From Phycisphaerae bacterium (lineage in GTDB: Bacteria; Planctomycetota; Phycisphaerae; WQYP01), in the NCBI GenBank assembly GCA_049977145.1, contig JBMFGW010000001.1, forward strand, positions 32,550-96,549: 64,000 bases of DNA. Direction: 5' to 3'. Of the stretch, positions 8,874 to 56,461 are shown one piece after another (the stretch's first letter is position 1; every line of letters starts with the position of its first letter). Under the pieces are notes generated by a model, which was not told where the DNA came from, did no database searches, and was given only the letters and a program-made list of their open reading frames with translations. Both the position numbers and the translations under genes were made by a program.

Positions 8874-9326
8874 GCGATGGGCGCGACCGTTATGATCCCT
8901 GACGCAGGGGCAATGACAACGGATTGTGACAGGGCGATGCGATAGTACGTTCGGAATATCAAGTATATGTATATTATCTATATGGGTGCAAATTCAAGAG
9001 AAAATGGCCTCTGCCATCCGCTATAAACCATGACACAGCAATAACTGCGGACATAACCCAGATGACGGGCGGCGACGGTTGCGTCCGCCGCGGGTACCGG
9101 GCGGAAACCCGCTGGAATGATGACCGTGGTGGGAGTTTCTCTACTACTCTGCCAGGCCACATTTTGGTCGTTGCACTGCTTCATGGCAACACTCCTTTCG
9201 CGCCAAGTGTCCTTTTAAGTTTTCAACCGCCATGGCAATAATCTTGCCCGTCCAGATCAGCCAGGCTATAATCTGGATATTCTTATCCAATTATAGCCTT
9301 GCCTTCGTATCAAATCAAAAGAGTTT

Positions 9327-9395
9327 TCATTCCGGCGATGAAAGTTCATCAGCGTCGGCCAGGTCCCTGGGCTGGCCGACGCAGTTCTTGTTTTG
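9327..9395. terminator. Pair of hairpins, candidate bidirectional rho-independent terminator
   Basis: tttcattccggcgatgaaa hairpin and gtcggccag-N9-ctggccgac hairpin followed by ttcttgtttt on the plus strand. On the minus strand the first hairpin is followed by ctcttttgatttg, downstream of the vapBC module. Confidence 0.3.
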
Positions 9396-9430
9396 AATGA
9401 GTAGTTCGCGGCTGATAAAGTTGACCGTAT

Positions 9431-9613
9431 TTAACGCGGGCGGCGTTTAATAACGCGACAAACTCGCGCAAGTCTTTGGAAAGTTTCATCGTTGCTCGGT
9501 TGGGTGTTGATCAGGTCCAGCAGAATATCCATCCGTTGTACCGGAGAAAGAGACCTGTAATAGGCCCGATCCGCCGCGCGATGAGAGTCAAATTTCCGAC
9601 CGATCTTCTCCAT
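9431..9613 (-). CDS. Hypothetical small protein (60 aa) downstream of vapC
   Basis: ORF MEKIGRKFDSHRAADRAYYRSLSPVQRMDILLDL... with no recognisable family. Could be a gene remnant. Confidence 0.15.
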   Translation of the reverse strand: MEKIGRKFDSHRAADRAYYRSLSPVQRMDILLDLINTQPSNDETFQRLARVCRVIKRRPR

Positions 9614-9644
9614 ATCCGTATTATACCACAACATCAGAACAGGA

Positions 9645-10037
9645 TTATTTCTTTGAATAGGCGGGTTTAAGCCCCGCGAGCATCGGATAATGTTTCGTAT
9701 TAAGTGTGCCAAGCTCAGTATTCTCAATCTGGATTGTTGCGGCAATGATCGCATCCGCCAAGCCCACCCCATGCGACTTGCCGAAGGTCTGCTTCAACAA
9801 TCCGCCAATCTTGGCACTTTCCACCGTAACCGGAATTATCCGGAATAGAGCAATAACGGCGTCCAGGAGTTCTTGTTCTGCCTCGCCCTGAACCCCTGCG
9901 TACAATTCCGCCACGGTAATGGAGGACAATACAATGTGATCCGCGTGTCTTTTCAGAAACGACACGGCTTTTTCATTTCCGCGCAGATAATCGATCATCA
10001 CATCTGTATCGACCAATATCGACTTGGGCATGTTCAT
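9645..10037 (-). CDS. vapC: PIN-domain ribonuclease toxin VapC
   Basis: 130 aa. N-terminal ILVDTDVMIDYL (PIN Asp) and conserved acidic residues. 4-bp ATGA overlap with the upstream antitoxin gene. Confidence 0.8.
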   Translation of the reverse strand: MNMPKSILVDTDVMIDYLRGNEKAVSFLKRHADHIVLSSITVAELYAGVQGEAEQELLDAVIALFRIIPVTVESAKIGGLLKQTFGKSHGVGLADAIIAATIQIENTELGTLNTKHYPMLAGLKPAYSKK

Positions 10038-10267
10038 CCCCTATCCCATTGGGCACGCAAAGTCCGGAAATCAGGAAGATCTTTGCGGTCCGCCCATATC
10101 CCCGCCGCGCGATTCAGCACATGTTCTCTTTGTTTATCACTGAATTGTTCGATAAGCCGGTCAACAGATTCCCTGATCAAGTCGCTTTGACTTCGCCCTG
10201 TTGTTTGGCATAGGGCGTTGAGTCCCTTGTGTTCATCGTCCGTCAGATAAAGTTGCGTTCGGAACAT
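10034..10267 (-). CDS. vapB: Antitoxin VapB (ribbon-helix-helix/CopG-like)
   Basis: 77 aa. N-terminal RHH-like TQLYLTDDEHKGLNALCQTTGRSQSDLIRESVDRLI. Translationally coupled to vapC. Confidence 0.7.
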   Translation of the reverse strand: MFRTQLYLTDDEHKGLNALCQTTGRSQSDLIRESVDRLIEQFSDKQREHVLNRAAGIWADRKDLPDFRTLRAQWDRG

Positions 10268-10343
10268 AACAATTCATCTCCAACTTATACATTAGCGGTA
10301 TACAGTAAAATCCACTTCCTGTCAATTTTATGTGGGTAGGCTA

Positions 10344-10531
10344 CGCCTGAAAGGGTGCGTGACACTATACGCGCGTATGGTTGCATTACCCACAAAACAT
10401 GATGCCCCCGGAGCACCGTCATGATAATGCGGTGCCGCTGGTACGCGCGGGAGCCACCGGCCACGGGTTTCCACCCGTAGCTGCGTGGATAATATGTCGG
10501 TTTCCGCCACCCGCATAAAGTGTCACGCACC
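10344..10531. other. 188-bp segment bounded by a perfect 13-bp inverted repeat (GGTGCGTGACACT ... AGTGTCACGCACC); candidate structured ncRNA or cis-element
   Basis: Lies in a 510-bp ORF-poor gap between vapB and the peroxiredoxin gene. Interior contains nested short hairpins (ccacggg...cccgtag). Confidence 0.25.
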
Positions 10532-10777
10532 TCGCCTGAAACCGATGGTTTATCCACCTCCGCCGGAGCCTGATGGCACTGCGCTAATGGGATTCGTGCT
10601 GCTTAGGAACCGGGCCGGAATAACTTCCCCGATTCAGATAGGCCGGAACCCCGATGCGTGGAAAACGGAATGCTATATTTCACATAGCCGCCGACTTGCC
10701 GGTGGTGGTATATCCCTCGGAATGGACGATTCGATTGCAGTGCAAATCGGGAAGTAATTACGGTACAATTCCGTATG

Positions 10778-12054: not shown

Positions 12055-12201
12055 CTGATGCGTATCCGTTCACGGCGGTACCGCTCCCTTACGGTCGCGG
12101 CTCGGCTACCACCGCGTGCGTACACTGGCAGCGGCGGCACAATGGGGCCTTGATCGCCGCCCATGGTAGGTACGCAAAAAATATGGTGCTTGAACGGTTA
12201 C
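12055..12201. repeat. Relic (right-hand portion) copy of the MITE family whose full copy is at 14199-14328
   Basis: Shares cgttcacggcggtacc(g/a)ctcccttacggt(c)gcggctcggc and ...tggtaggtacgc...tg(a)acggttac with the full copy. Carries a roughly 45-bp internal insertion and lacks the left TIR and TSD. Confidence 0.45.
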
Positions 12202-12901: not shown

Positions 12902-14062
12902 ATGGCAGTGATGATTTATCTGGACAATAATGCGACTACCCGGATAGCGCCTGAAGTTCTGGCATCTATGCGGCCCTTTCTGGAAGACAGTTATGGCAAT
13001 CCTTCCAGTGTACATCAGGCCGGGCAGGAAGCCCGGCATGCGGTTGAGGAAGCCCGCTATCAGGCGGCGGAATTCATCGGTTGCCGTCCGGCGGAAGTGA
13101 TATTTACCAGCGGCGGCACCGAAGCGGATAACGCGGCGGTATTGGGGGTAATGCCGGGACGGACAAAAAAAACAATCATCACCTCAACCGTGGAACATAG
13201 TGCAATTCGTGCGCCGACGGATTATCTGGCCAAGCATGGATATCGCGTTGTAACCATAGGGGTTGATGCGCTGGGACGGCTGGATATGGAGGCGCTACAT
13301 GCCGCACTGGCCGATCCCGATGCGGCGTTGCTGACCTTGATCTGGGTCAATAACGAAACCGGTGTGATTTTCGATGTGGATACAATTGGCGCTGCCGCCC
13401 GCACCCATGGTGTGCCGTTCCACGTGGATGCGGTGCAGGCGGCGGGAAAACTTCCGTTACGATTTTCCAGTCGGCCCATTGATCTATTGTCCGTCAGCGC
13501 ACATAAATTTCACGGTCCCAAAGGCGTGGGGGCCTTGGTCGTGCGGCGCGGTTTGGCCTATCAGCCGCTGATCCGCGGTGGTCCGCAGGAACGGGATCGC
13601 CGGGGCGGCACGGAAAATGTCGCGGGGATCGTCGGGTTAGGAGCGGCGGCGGCGCGGGCCACTGCCATGTTGGCGGAGTCTGGCTATATACAGCGCATAG
13701 CCACAATGCGGAATAAACTTGAGACGGGAATTTTGAATTCGGTTCCGGATTGTTATAGCATCGGGGATCCGGAAAACCGCGTGGCCAATACTACGAATAT
13801 CGGTTTTGCAGCGTTGGAAGCCGAGGCGATCCTGCTGCTGCTGAACCAGAACGATATTTGCGCCAGCGCCGGGGCGGCGTGTTCCAGTGGATCTCTTGAA
13901 CCATCCCATGTGCTCAAAGCCATGGGCATAGCGGAAAAAATTGCGCATGGTGCGGTGCGATTTTCATTATCTGAATTTACCACGGATGCGGACATAGAGC
14001 AGACGCTCCAAGTCATACCCCAGATCATCACCCGCCTGCGGCACGTCTTACCGGTGGGCTAA
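12902..14062 (+). CDS. Cysteine desulfurase, NifS/IscS class (PLP-dependent aminotransferase class V)
   Basis: MIYLDNNATTRIAPEVL, FTSGGTEADN, SVSAHKFHGPKGVGAL (PLP Lys), and ASAGAACSSG active-site Cys loop. Confidence 0.85.
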   Translation: MAVMIYLDNNATTRIAPEVLASMRPFLEDSYGNPSSVHQAGQEARHAVEEARYQAAEFIGCRPAEVIFTSGGTEADNAAVLGVMPGRTKKTIITSTVEHSAIRAPTDYLAKHGYRVVTIGVDALGRLDMEALHAALADPDAALLTLIWVNNETGVIFDVDTIGAAARTHGVPFHVDAVQAAGKLPLRFSSRPIDLLSVSAHKFHGPKGVGALVVRRGLAYQPLIRGGPQERDRRGGTENVAGIVGLGAAAARATAMLAESGYIQRIATMRNKLETGILNSVPDCYSIGDPENRVANTTNIGFAALEAEAILLLLNQNDICASAGAACSSGSLEPSHVLKAMGIAEKIAHGAVRFSLSEFTTDADIEQTLQVIPQIITRLRHVLPVG

Positions 14063-14150: not shown

Positions 14151-14198
14151 ATCATGGTTCGGGGTTCACACGGGAAGCACTGCTCCATATTGATAGAT

Positions 14199-14328
14199 GT
14201 AACCGTTCACGGCCTTTCGGCCTTCCAAACTCGATATGCGTTCACGGCGGTACCACTCCCTTACGGTGCGGCTCGGCCTGCCGTTATGCGTGGTAGGTAC
14301 GCCCAAAACATCGTGCGTGAACGGTTAC
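14199..14328. mobile_element. MITE-like non-autonomous element (130 bp) with 14-bp terminal inverted repeats and 8-bp target-site duplication TGATAGAT
   Basis: Left end GTAACCGTTCACGG (14199-14212). Right end GCGTGAACGGTTAC (14315-14328), matching 13 of 14 as reverse complement. Direct repeats TGATAGAT at 14191-14198 and 14329-14336. No ORF inside. Related partial copies at 12055-12201 and 29806-29840. Confidence 0.6.
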
Positions 14329-14367
14329 TGATAGATCAACCACCGCATTGCGAACTGGATACAATTG

Positions 14368-15006
14368 TCATTTCTTCGCATTTTGATAAATTTCCGCAAC
14401 TTTGGTCCAGTTTACGACTTCCCACCAGTTTGCAATGTATTCGGGCCGTCGATTCTGATACTTGAGGTAATAAGCGTGTTCCCAGACATCCAACCCCAAA
14501 ACAGGCGTGCCGGAAAGTCCGCAGACCGTCTGCCCCATCAACGGATTATCCTGATTGGCCGTGGAACCTATGGTTAGCTTGCCGTCTTGGAGTACCAGCC
14601 AAGCCCAGCCGGAGCCAAACCGTTTGGCTGCGGCGTCGCTGAACCGTGTTTTGAATTCCGCAAAGGAACCGAACGTGGAGTTAATCGCCGCCGCCAAATC
14701 GCCCGTCGGTTCTCCACCGCCGCCCTTGCCCTTGGCGGCCATGATCTGCCAGAACATGGTATGGTTGGCGTTGCCGCCGCCATTATTCCGCACGGTAGTG
14801 CGGATATCCTCCGGGACTGCCGCCAAATTGCCAATTAAAGCCGCAAGAGATTTCGTCTCCAACGCGGGCTTTCCAGCAATCGCATTATTGAGATTGGTGA
14901 CATAACCGCCATGATGCTTGCCGTGGTGAATCTGCATGGTTTGCGTATCGATAATAGGTTCCAGCGCGCCAAAATCATACGGTAATGCAGGAAGTTGAAA
15001 AGCCAT
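14368..15006 (-). CDS. sod: Superoxide dismutase, Fe/Mn family
   Basis: [32 protein letters not shown] and DVWEHAYYL motifs. 212 aa. Confidence 0.9.
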
Positions 15007-29805: not shown

Positions 29806-29840
29806 GTAACCATTCACAGCCTTTCGGCCAGTCAAACTCG
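29806..29840. repeat. Left-end relic of the same MITE family (gtaaccattcacagcctttcggccagtcaaactcg)
   Basis: Matches the left TIR and the first roughly 35 bp of the element at 14199. Located in the divergent intergenic region between the NifX-like gene and addB. Confidence 0.35.
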
Positions 29841-30223
29841 CCACGAGTTTGGCTTATAAATAAATTGTATTCCGCCCCTAACGGAAATCAAATTTCTTCC
29901 AATAACAACTTAAACAAAAGTTTTGAATTTTGCGCTATCCATCTGATAAAGGAATTATGATCAAAGGACTACTCAAAACGGCATGGATATACAGAACAAG
30001 CCTATCAGCAGCGTAACGCTGAGCTGAATTTACAGAACACGACCTTGGAATCGCGTGTCACCGATTTCACACGGCAACTCGTCCAGCATGATGCCGTGAT
30101 TGGTAAACTGGGCGCACAATTGGCCAGCGCAATACGGGTGTAACACACCCGCGACACGTCCTTGCGTTTAATCCATCTTGGGTTATGTTCAACGTATGTT
30201 GGTATCTGGTGCGGGACGGGGTT

Positions 30224-54847: not shown

Positions 54848-54893
54848 TCAGGCCAATGCTTGCAATCAAAATAATTGACGTAGTTTCAGGCTG

Positions 54894-55862
54894 GGTCAAG
54901 GCGCTCAAGTTAGCGTCAAGATCCGCAAGATGTTTTTGGGCGGCTGTGGCGGCGGCTGCCGCCGAGAGCAGGTGAAAAGTAGAGAGTTGAACAGTAGAGC
55001 AAATAGGGCTGGAACAAAAGAGTTGCTGGCGCTTGCTGGAAGACCCACCTGCGGTCTACTTTCTATTTTCTACTTTCAGGCGAAGCCGCCAGCTGTTAGA
55101 AGTCCTTTTCACTGATCAAAGAACACTGATCACGGATCAATATGGCGACGGGCAACGAACAACGATCAACGTTCTTTGCGAATTTCAAGGTGTCCAAGAT
55201 GCTCAAGTTCGGGGGCAAGGTGCTCAAGTTGAGCAAGTTGACGGGAGCGTTGATTCTAGAGGGTTTGGTTCAAGGTGCTCAAGATGCTCAAGATGTTTTG
55301 GCCCCCCAGGGGGGCCAGCATTTAGCATTGAGGAGTTGGGAGTCCTTTTGCAGTATTGGTCAGTATTATCAGTAATTGCAGTACTGCGCAATATTTGGCG
55401 TTTCGCTTCGACGGGTAACGAGATTGGTGTTGCAGTTGTGGCTGCGACGTGTGCTTGTTCCTGTTTAGGATTCTTTTCCGCGATCGCTGTGGCGGCATGT
55501 TATTGACTTTTCAAATCCCGGCCAGCCGGGATGCGGCGTCGGAACAATCATTTGTGGTTCCGGCGTCGTGCTGATGCTATAGGGGAAAGCGCGTGGCGAT
55601 AACAATTTTCACGGATCATAATGGCAACGAACAACGGGCAACGAACAAGGTTCTTTTCGAATTTCAAGGTGGCCAAGAGGGCCAAGTTAGGGAGGCAAGG
55701 GGGCCAAGTTCGGCAAGTTGAGAAAAGGCTTGATGGCAGCGGATTTGGTTCAAGAGGGCCAAGAGGGCCAAGATGTTTTTTGCCCCCCAGGGGGGGCGGC
55801 ATTTAGCATTGAGGAGTTAGGAGTCCTTTTCACTGATCAAAGAACACTGATCACGGATCAAT
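54894..55862. repeat. Tandem array of paralogous ~215-bp units in a 1.6-kb gene-free region, bounded by a 40-bp perfect direct repeat
   Basis: Full units at 55142-55350 and 55621-55830. A truncated third tail lies at 54894-54940. The bounding repeat is GTCCTTTTCACTGATCAAAGAACACTGATCACGGATCAAT at 55102-55141 and 55823-55862. Each unit has an ATG sORF, internal 9-nt-period CAAG repeats, a GC hairpin CCCCCCAGGGGGG, and agcatttagcattgaggagttRggagtcctttt. Confidence 0.5.
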
Positions 55863-56060
55863 GACGATGGTGAGAGACGATTAGCCACAGAGGGCACCGA
55901 GGGCACAGAGTTTACGGCACTACGGGGGACGGATTGAACCACGAGTAAATGAGGTAGGCGGAGGGGAAGCTACCAACGTGCGATGGGTGACGGGGGGCGC
56001 GGTTTTGGGTTACAGGTGACAGGTTACGGGCCAGTTTTTCAGTTTTCGGGGGAACGCGAA

Positions 56061-56347
56061 AAGGTGACATCCATCATTATCATCTTGTCCCCTGCTTTTT
56101 TGGTCTTCCAAACGGGTTCAGTGTGTGATCCAATCCCGTGCTTGCCGCCATTGTTGCCACCCAGTGCTCTTCTCCCAAGGGACGGGCGTGGTCGGCGTGG
56201 CGGCCCAGCTCCGGTCGGGGCTGCGCCCCTTCCTGCGCCTACGCCTGGCCGCCACGCCACTGGAGTATCGATACCAGGGCGACACTTCTACTTCGGCTAA
56301 CAGGGTGACATTTCTACTTCTTGACAACAACGATGGATGTCACCTTT
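56061..56347. repeat. 16-bp perfect inverted repeat (AAAGGTGACATCCATC / GATGGATGTCACCTTT) flanking a 255-bp GC-rich segment
   Basis: Arms at 56061-56076 and 56332-56347. The interior is about 68% GC and contains no convincing ORF. Lies upstream of the GH29-GH92 gene start region. Confidence 0.4.
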
Positions 56348-56461
56348 TCGTGTCCCCCTCTGGCAGATCATCGCCCGTGTGATCGATCAAGGCTCGCAGC
56401 TCTCGGCGGTACGTCTGGCTTCCACCGCCGCGCGCATCCAGGCCGTGGCGCTCAGAATGGG

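Follow-up and report, generated by a model that had tools for sequence, protein, structure and literature searches.

The question raised by this locus is how a 130-bp non-coding segment framed by a perfect direct repeat came to lie between two convergent genes. In the 64-kb window (the whole stretch of DNA that was analysed), a NifS-type cysteine desulfurase gene on the plus strand ends at 14062 and a Mn/Fe superoxide dismutase gene (sod) on the minus strand has its stop at 14368, so that both converge on the segment at 14199..14328 (plus strand), hereafter copy 1, which lies 31 nt from the sod stop codon. The anatomy of copy 1 is read directly from the sequence. Its left terminal inverted repeat (TIR) GTAACCGTTCACGG (14199..14212, plus strand) matches the superfamily consensus GTAACCGTTCACGGG described below, and its right one, GCGTGAACGGTTAC (14315..14328, minus strand), reads GTAACCGTTCACGC on the minus strand; the two agree at 13/14 positions, with the end motif GTAACCGTTCACG(G/C). 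Outside them the 8-mer TGATAGAT forms a perfect target-site duplication (14191..14198 and 14329..14336), giving the junction order ccatat, TGATAGAT, GTAACCGTTCACGG ... GCGTGAACGGTTAC, TGATAGAT, caacc and a reconstructed site before insertion of ...CTCCATAT-TGATAGAT-CAACCACC... Inside the left end lies a small subterminal hairpin, GGCCTTTCGGCC (14211..14222, plus strand), which occurs in copy 3 as well, and 10 nt of the left-end motif (CGTTCACGGC, 14204-14213) recur as a direct repeat at 14239..14248 on the plus strand, where they may form a putative second transposase-binding site; comparable subterminal repeats are present in the superfamily member L039. No ORF is contained inside copy 1. A sequence-only reading of this DNA had described a 130-bp element without an ORF, with 14-bp TIRs and a perfect 8-bp duplication, between convergent cysteine desulfurase and SOD genes, and the description holds throughout, with the TIRs matching at 13 of 14 positions.

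Chance is a poor account of this arrangement. The window contains 22 inverted-repeat pairs (14 nt, at most one mismatch, 50-500 bp apart), a single one of which (1/22), namely copy 1, has a perfect flanking 8-bp direct repeat; in 30 random sequences from a first-order Markov model the average was 7.9 such pairs, none of them with a flanking 8-bp repeat. The 13-mer end, at up to two mismatches, matches six times in the window versus 1.4 expected, a number that 0/100 shuffles got to. The best explanation overall, and one that we regard as very probable, is that copy 1 is a non-autonomous DNA transposon (MITE) moved in trans by a DDE transposase, most likely of the IS66 family.

The interior 20-mer GGCGGTACCNCTCCCTTACGG, which occurs twice in the window, has no match in genome_contigs, a collection without the source MAG, and two in metagenome_contigs, both of them chance matches within coding sequence, indicating that the interior of copy 1 is private to its source lineage. 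Because this 20-mer gave nothing real, the two ends were tried instead, and the pattern TAACCGTTCAC-N(90-120)-GTGAACGGTTA was scanned over 185,579 species genomes (596 Gb). It occurs at more than 115 loci at the least, against a chance expectation of about one (596 Gb x 31 spacings / 4^22). Among the matches listed, a perfect 8-bp target duplication is seen in 50/112 usable elements, and flanking identity is at least 7/8 in 61/112 and at least 6/8 in 68/112; an offset control with windows shifted by 12 nt never rose above 6/8 (0/110 at 7/8). The 51/112 elements among the matches listed that have no good duplication are compatible with age or rearrangement. Element lengths among the matches listed are 114-144 bp (median 125), and the 224 ends of these matches yield the terminal consensus GTAACCGTTCACGGG, whose positions 2-12 were set by the search pattern, so that conservation there is ascertainment and not measurement; the outermost base, which the pattern leaves unspecified, is G in 211/224 of the ends listed, and positions 13-15 are mostly G among the same matches.

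By record title, about 91 of the 115 loci among the matches listed (~79%) belong to Planctomycetota, comprising 39 in Pirellulales including Thermoguttaceae, 23 in Planctomycetales, 19 in Gemmatales, 8 with the order not given and 2 in Phycisphaerae; the others listed are 12 in Desulfobacterota, 7 in Pseudomonadota and 5 in Nitrospinae, Chloroflexia, Chitinophaga or unnamed. Some of the non-planctomycete matches come from short MAG contigs that may have been binned wrongly. Several copies occur within one genome in Thermoguttaceae AnMBR.bin233, Gemmatales La1_concoct.277 and Planctomycetaceae F1-120-MAGs029. The interiors, mostly long imperfect palindromes, are near-identical within a genome and unrelated between lineages, and none of the superfamily elements compared outside the window is a relative of the copy 1 interior. 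A literature search for the MITE terminus sequence found no mention of it. The superfamily, directly observed through its ends and mostly planctomycete, is thus a previously undescribed family of an ordinary kind of element. That the GTAACCGTTCAC(GGG) termini define a pan-phylum MITE superfamily in which some 12-15 terminal bases are the sole conserved cis requirement is a tentative extension, to which we give somewhat less than an even chance.

Three loci of the superfamily scan carry additional features. One IMG/VR contig matches the two-end pattern (L139:7664-7787) with the perfect duplication CTTCGCAC, and on this viral contig the MITE lies ~3.5 kb from terminase and portal genes; given this copy, phage might ferry the MITE between hosts. 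The non-coding element at L107:6556-6855 is 300 bp long, has perfect GTAACCGTTCAC ends and shows the duplication AAAATATA; a MITE of 122 bp with the identical end type is found 190 bp away, and from this pair it appears that one transposase serves several unrelated passengers. At L015:4437-5929, a MITE is followed 1.3 kb on by a solitary perfect right end, and the interval codes for a protein of 298 aa that has a weak RecA-like match, and the whole could be a derivative carrying a passenger.

Direct support for insertion comes from empty sites, which were rebuilt for each element as left flank, one duplication copy and right flank and searched against all fetched DNA. Two uninterrupted paralogues were recovered, each in the same genome as the filled site and each with one 8-mer in place of the 8-mer, element and second 8-mer of the filled site: L037 (duplication GACTCGAG) is paired with L056:5506-5584 (82.7% over 81 nt, E = 3e-13) and L102 (duplication CTCGAAAG) with L055:7648-7709 (85.9% over 64 nt, E = 4e-12). 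The NifS protein of the window is 100% identical to one from a Phycisphaerae MAG. In the closest relatives (L001-L003, 83-84% NifS identity) nifS is all that is shared with the window; these three loci lack the 130-bp element, are not syntenic downstream of nifS and offer no empty allele of the copy 1 site. Two of them, from sister MAGs, contain an orthologous ~400-bp non-coding element just upstream of nifS (L002:1085-1487 and L003:127-510). These elements are 84% identical to each other, have no target duplication and are bounded by GTAACCGTTTACGG and ...GA(A/T)CGGT(T/G)AC, i.e. GATCGGTTAC or GAACGGTGAC; the presence of an orthologous element in two relatives implies that MITE-type termini are old in that clade. 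At the level of the superfamily, the diagnostics that had been proposed for a MITE, among them further copies and empty sites, came out in favour of that reading.

The identity of the mobilising enzyme is suggested by the ends and by the length of the duplication. IS630/Tc1 elements make TA duplications and IS5 elements 4-bp ones (ISfinder family table), lengths that are wrong for the IS630/Tc1 or IS5-like partner envisaged in the sequence-only reading; GTAA ends with 8 bp point to IS66 instead. Besides IS66, no family of the ISfinder table is known to join GTAA ends with an 8-9-bp duplication. IS66-family inverted repeats are described as beginning GTAAGCG, with 8-bp direct repeats (PMC11946415), compared with GTAACCG at the start of the MITE ends, and an 8-bp repeat accompanies the GTAACTGCTCAGCA ends of ISDge4, a member of the IS66/ISBst12 group (PMC12898284). 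A TnpB query matched L094, from a Thermoguttaceae genome that also bears the MITE, where a canonical 2770-bp IS66 with HTH_Tnp_1, TnpB_IS66 and LZ/zf/DDE_Tnp_IS66 domains has the ends GTGTCCGTCCTGTGAAC (GTGTCCGTCC) and the perfect duplication AGAAAGCC. Further complete IS66 elements were obtained from metagenome and MAG contigs through homologues of the L094 TnpC and TnpB, with Pfam domains assigned.

The ends of the recovered bona fide IS66 elements (TnpA/B/C) are GTAACCGTTC, GTAAGCGTTC or GTAACCGTCC, and their similarity to the MITE terminus is a direct observation. Over the first 10 nt of the MITE, the left end of L129 (GTAACCGTTCGGTGAAC) agrees at 10/10 positions, both ends of L125, L126 and L128 (GTAAGCGTTCGAT(G/A)AAC) at 9/10, those of L132 (GT(T/A)ACCGTCCTGTGAAC, including GTAACCGTCC) at 8/10 and 9/10, those of L124 (GTATCCGTCCTGT(G/A)AAC, GTATCCGTCC) at 8/10, and that of L135 (GTGAGCGTTC) at 8/10, the chance of a match of at least 8/10 being ~4e-4 per comparison. 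Perfect 8-bp duplications were found in two of the IS66 elements, L094 and L135 (CAATAGGG in the latter). The left end of copy 2 in the window, GTATCCGTTC, agrees with L124 at 9/10 positions. Since real IS66 ends match at 8-10/10, the MITE terminus lies inside the range over which IS66 ends naturally vary in these communities. At the family level, the assignment to IS66 is therefore likely; we infer it with good support from end sequence and duplication length, as distinct from a demonstrated partnership.

The main live alternative for the partner, an improbable one in our view, is another 8-bp-duplicating family (IS256, ISL3, IS1595, IS6 or an undescribed one) acting on the same MITE. It gains from the outcome of the search for an exact IS66 partner, which was not found in the loci searched. 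The window contains no transposase among its ORFs of at least 150 aa and gave no tblastn match to IS66 proteins, just as the sequence-only reading had held the partner to be absent from it. In the 826 kb of loci that bear MITEs, no transposase was found adjoining a MITE and just one IS66 occurs, with different ends; no autonomous element with exact GTAACCGTTCAC ends was found in these 826 kb or in the recovered IS66 set. The search for long elements with MITE ends and a duplication brought up just the 300-bp non-coding one, and a scan of viral contigs for the hypothetical partner end GTAACCGTTCAC-N(4-10)-CATCTTG gave 0 matches. ORFs that form recurrent clusters, or that adjoin solitary ends, proved to be ordinary genes (oxidoreductases, DUF1559, sulfatase and others). 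The alternative gains as well from the departure of the recovered IS66 ends from the MITE after position 10, where the MITE continues ...CACGGG and IS66 ...GGTGAAC (GTTCGGTGAAC in IS66 against GTTCACGGG in the MITE), and from an IS256-type transposase gene that adjoins one IS66, showing that such families coexist in these hosts. Two points nevertheless favour IS66 over the other families. Among the 8-bp duplicators of the ISfinder table, GTAA-type ends are known from IS66 only (for whose ends see PMC11946415), and real IS66 ends agree with the MITE terminus at 9-10/10 positions.

A second alternative accepts the transposon and denies that it moved in its short form: copy 1 would be the remnant of a full-length insertion sequence that suffered an internal deletion in situ. 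Inverted ends and a target duplication would be expected from such a remnant too, and longer elements, of 300 bp and ~400 bp, have been found with these ends. What makes it very unlikely is the evidence that the short form was itself copied. When the 130-bp element was compared by BLASTN with the 64-kb window, matches to copy 1 were found only at 12063-12106 with 12164-12201 and at 29806-29849, and all three window copies (3/3) are on the plus strand. Copy 2 (12062..12201, plus strand, 140 bp), downstream of rpmA, has both ends, GTATCCGTTCACGG at 12062 and CTTGAACGGTTAC at 12201, each with one mismatch to the consensus; the earlier description of 12055-12201 as a right-hand relic is thereby superseded. 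It is 93% identical to copy 1 over 44 nt (E = 3e-10) and 87% over 38 nt (E = 9e-7), both E-values being in-window ones. It is without the 35-nt segment that lies between the CGTTCACGGC repeats of copy 1 (14204-14213, 14239-14248), contains an internal insertion of ~45 nt relative to copy 1, and has no target duplication, its flanks GCTGATGC and GATTAAAG agreeing at 3/8. Copy 2 may have arisen by deletion or copy 1 by duplication; with three copies, either fits. Copy 3 (29806..29849, plus strand) is a left-end fragment made up of the inverted end and the GGCCTTTCGGCC hairpin module, 80% identical to copy 1 over 44 nt (E = 7e-6), and lies in a divergent spacer, upstream both of a NifX/NifB-family gene (by ~50 bp) and of addB (by 336 bp). 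A left-hand relic had been noted there at 29806-29840, rightly as to its nature and its place before addB, and short of its true extent, which runs to 29849. Because copies 1, 2 and 3 share non-terminal interior sequence, the short form itself must have been copied, and in other genomes many near-identical short copies occupy different sites with different duplications.

A third alternative dispenses with transposition and takes copy 1 as a conserved structured RNA, or as a bidirectional terminator hairpin of nifS and sod, with a coincidental flanking repeat. The predicted fold of copy 1 is indeed a single long hairpin in which the inverted ends pair to close the stem (-51.5 kcal/mol, z = -3.2), a stable structure (z = -3.2 and -2.6) placed between convergent genes and 31 nt from the sod stop. 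This reading is highly improbable: no Rfam family matches at the gathering score (chance-level matches only at E up to 10), the T-run signature of a terminator is absent, the interior is not conserved between lineages or the site in relatives, and target duplications are found throughout the superfamily. The sequence-only reading had itself kept a conserved structured RNA as its fallback, which these results disfavour. A palindromic repeat of the REP/REPIN type, dispersed by an IS200/IS605-like (RAYT) enzyme, would likewise be short, intergenic, multi-copy and hairpin-forming. It is scarcely credible here, where the ends begin with GTAAC and 8-bp duplications are usual, whereas the REP super-families described in PMC3733652 are 20-40-bp palindromes with a GTAG or CGTC tag at one end.

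For the preferred reading of copy 1 as a MITE, we propose that a DDE transposase acting in trans, most likely of the IS66 family (TnpC, with TnpA and TnpB), would bind the GTAACCGTTCAC(GG) sequence at both termini and make a staggered cut of 8 bp in the target, that the element would enter the neutral intergenic region where the nifS-like and sod genes converge, and that gap repair would yield the TGATAGAT duplication. The perfect duplication, together with ends that match at 13/14 positions, suggests that the insertion of copy 1 is relatively recent. Copy 2, whose two ends have mutated and whose duplication is gone, and copy 3, reduced to its left end, would be older relics of the same lineage-specific subfamily, whose amplification probably came after miniaturisation, copies 1 and 2 sharing non-terminal sequence. 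At nifS and sod little consequence is predicted; the insertion would be neutral and most likely just adds a hairpin to the 3' ends of the neighbouring transcripts.

The element resembles bacterial MITEs such as MITEPsy1, MITEAba12, Correia and Nezha in being 100-150 bp long and non-coding, with terminal inverted repeats and a duplication of fixed length, as well as in its intergenic position and hairpin-forming interior; the superfamily shares with them, in other genomes, many copies per genome. Most described bacterial MITE families are confined to one species or genus and conserved over their whole length, whereas members of the present superfamily, which come from several planctomycete orders and, it appears, from several phyla, have only 12-15 terminal bases in common, with an interior peculiar to each lineage. 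With IS66 (tnpA-tnpB-tnpC, or one ORF in the ISBst12 group) it shares ends of the type GTAA(G/C)CG and the 8-bp duplication; unlike IS66, the MITE carries no genes, and its ends part from those of the recovered IS66 after about position 10. REP, BIME and REPIN sequences are also short intergenic palindromic repeats, but the GTAG or CGTC head is missing from the present element. Its clear 8-bp duplications imply DDE-type cutting and staggered integration, unlike REP/BIME/REPIN, and REP elements are not known to make a target duplication.

Conservation across lineages of the termini alone, together with the IS66 link, is of modest interest and mainly to specialists. The family can serve as a marker for recent transposase activity and for assembly breaks in planctomycete MAGs, and its two 12-mers with the 8-bp duplication provide a sequence tag for tracing the autonomous element. 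Its invariant short termini and free interiors constitute a natural experiment on the cis needs of IS66-type transposition. If the termini do define such a pan-phylum superfamily, a single widespread clade of IS66 has time and again generated, or cross-mobilised, hairpins of unrelated sequence in Planctomycetota, Desulfobacterota and other sediment bacteria, and the superfamily would define from natural examples the minimal substrate of IS66, a family whose transposition mechanism is still poorly understood.

Several minor observations concern the IS66 elements and other stretches of the window. L094:1-4179 carries two 2770-bp IS66 copies ~3.2 kb apart, the complete one sitting, with its duplication AGAAAGCC, inside a fragment of an IS630-type (DDE_3) transposase gene. 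In L121-L123 (e.g. L122:1068-1685), an extra 205-aa Phage_integrase (tyrosine recombinase) gene lies between tnpB and tnpC of IS66, and this tnpB-Phage_integrase-tnpC arrangement is identical on the three independent contigs. The window also contains a gene-poor 1.9-kb stretch at 8874-10777, with small minus-strand ORFs at 9431-9772 and 9645-10037 and one ending near 10270; no tRNA or Rfam match was found in it, and the stretch has the look of a small module that was inserted here, possibly of toxin-antitoxin type. A further stretch, 54850-56460, consists of ~1.6 kb of non-coding, repeat-rich DNA, in which Tandem Repeats Finder reported none and the ORFs have no Pfam matches; it comprises two ~250-bp units ~480 bp apart that are 72-98% identical in blocks, together with repeated TCACTGATCAAAGAACACTGATCACGGATCAAT boxes, CAACGAACAACG motifs and GGCCCCCCAGGGGGGCC hairpins.
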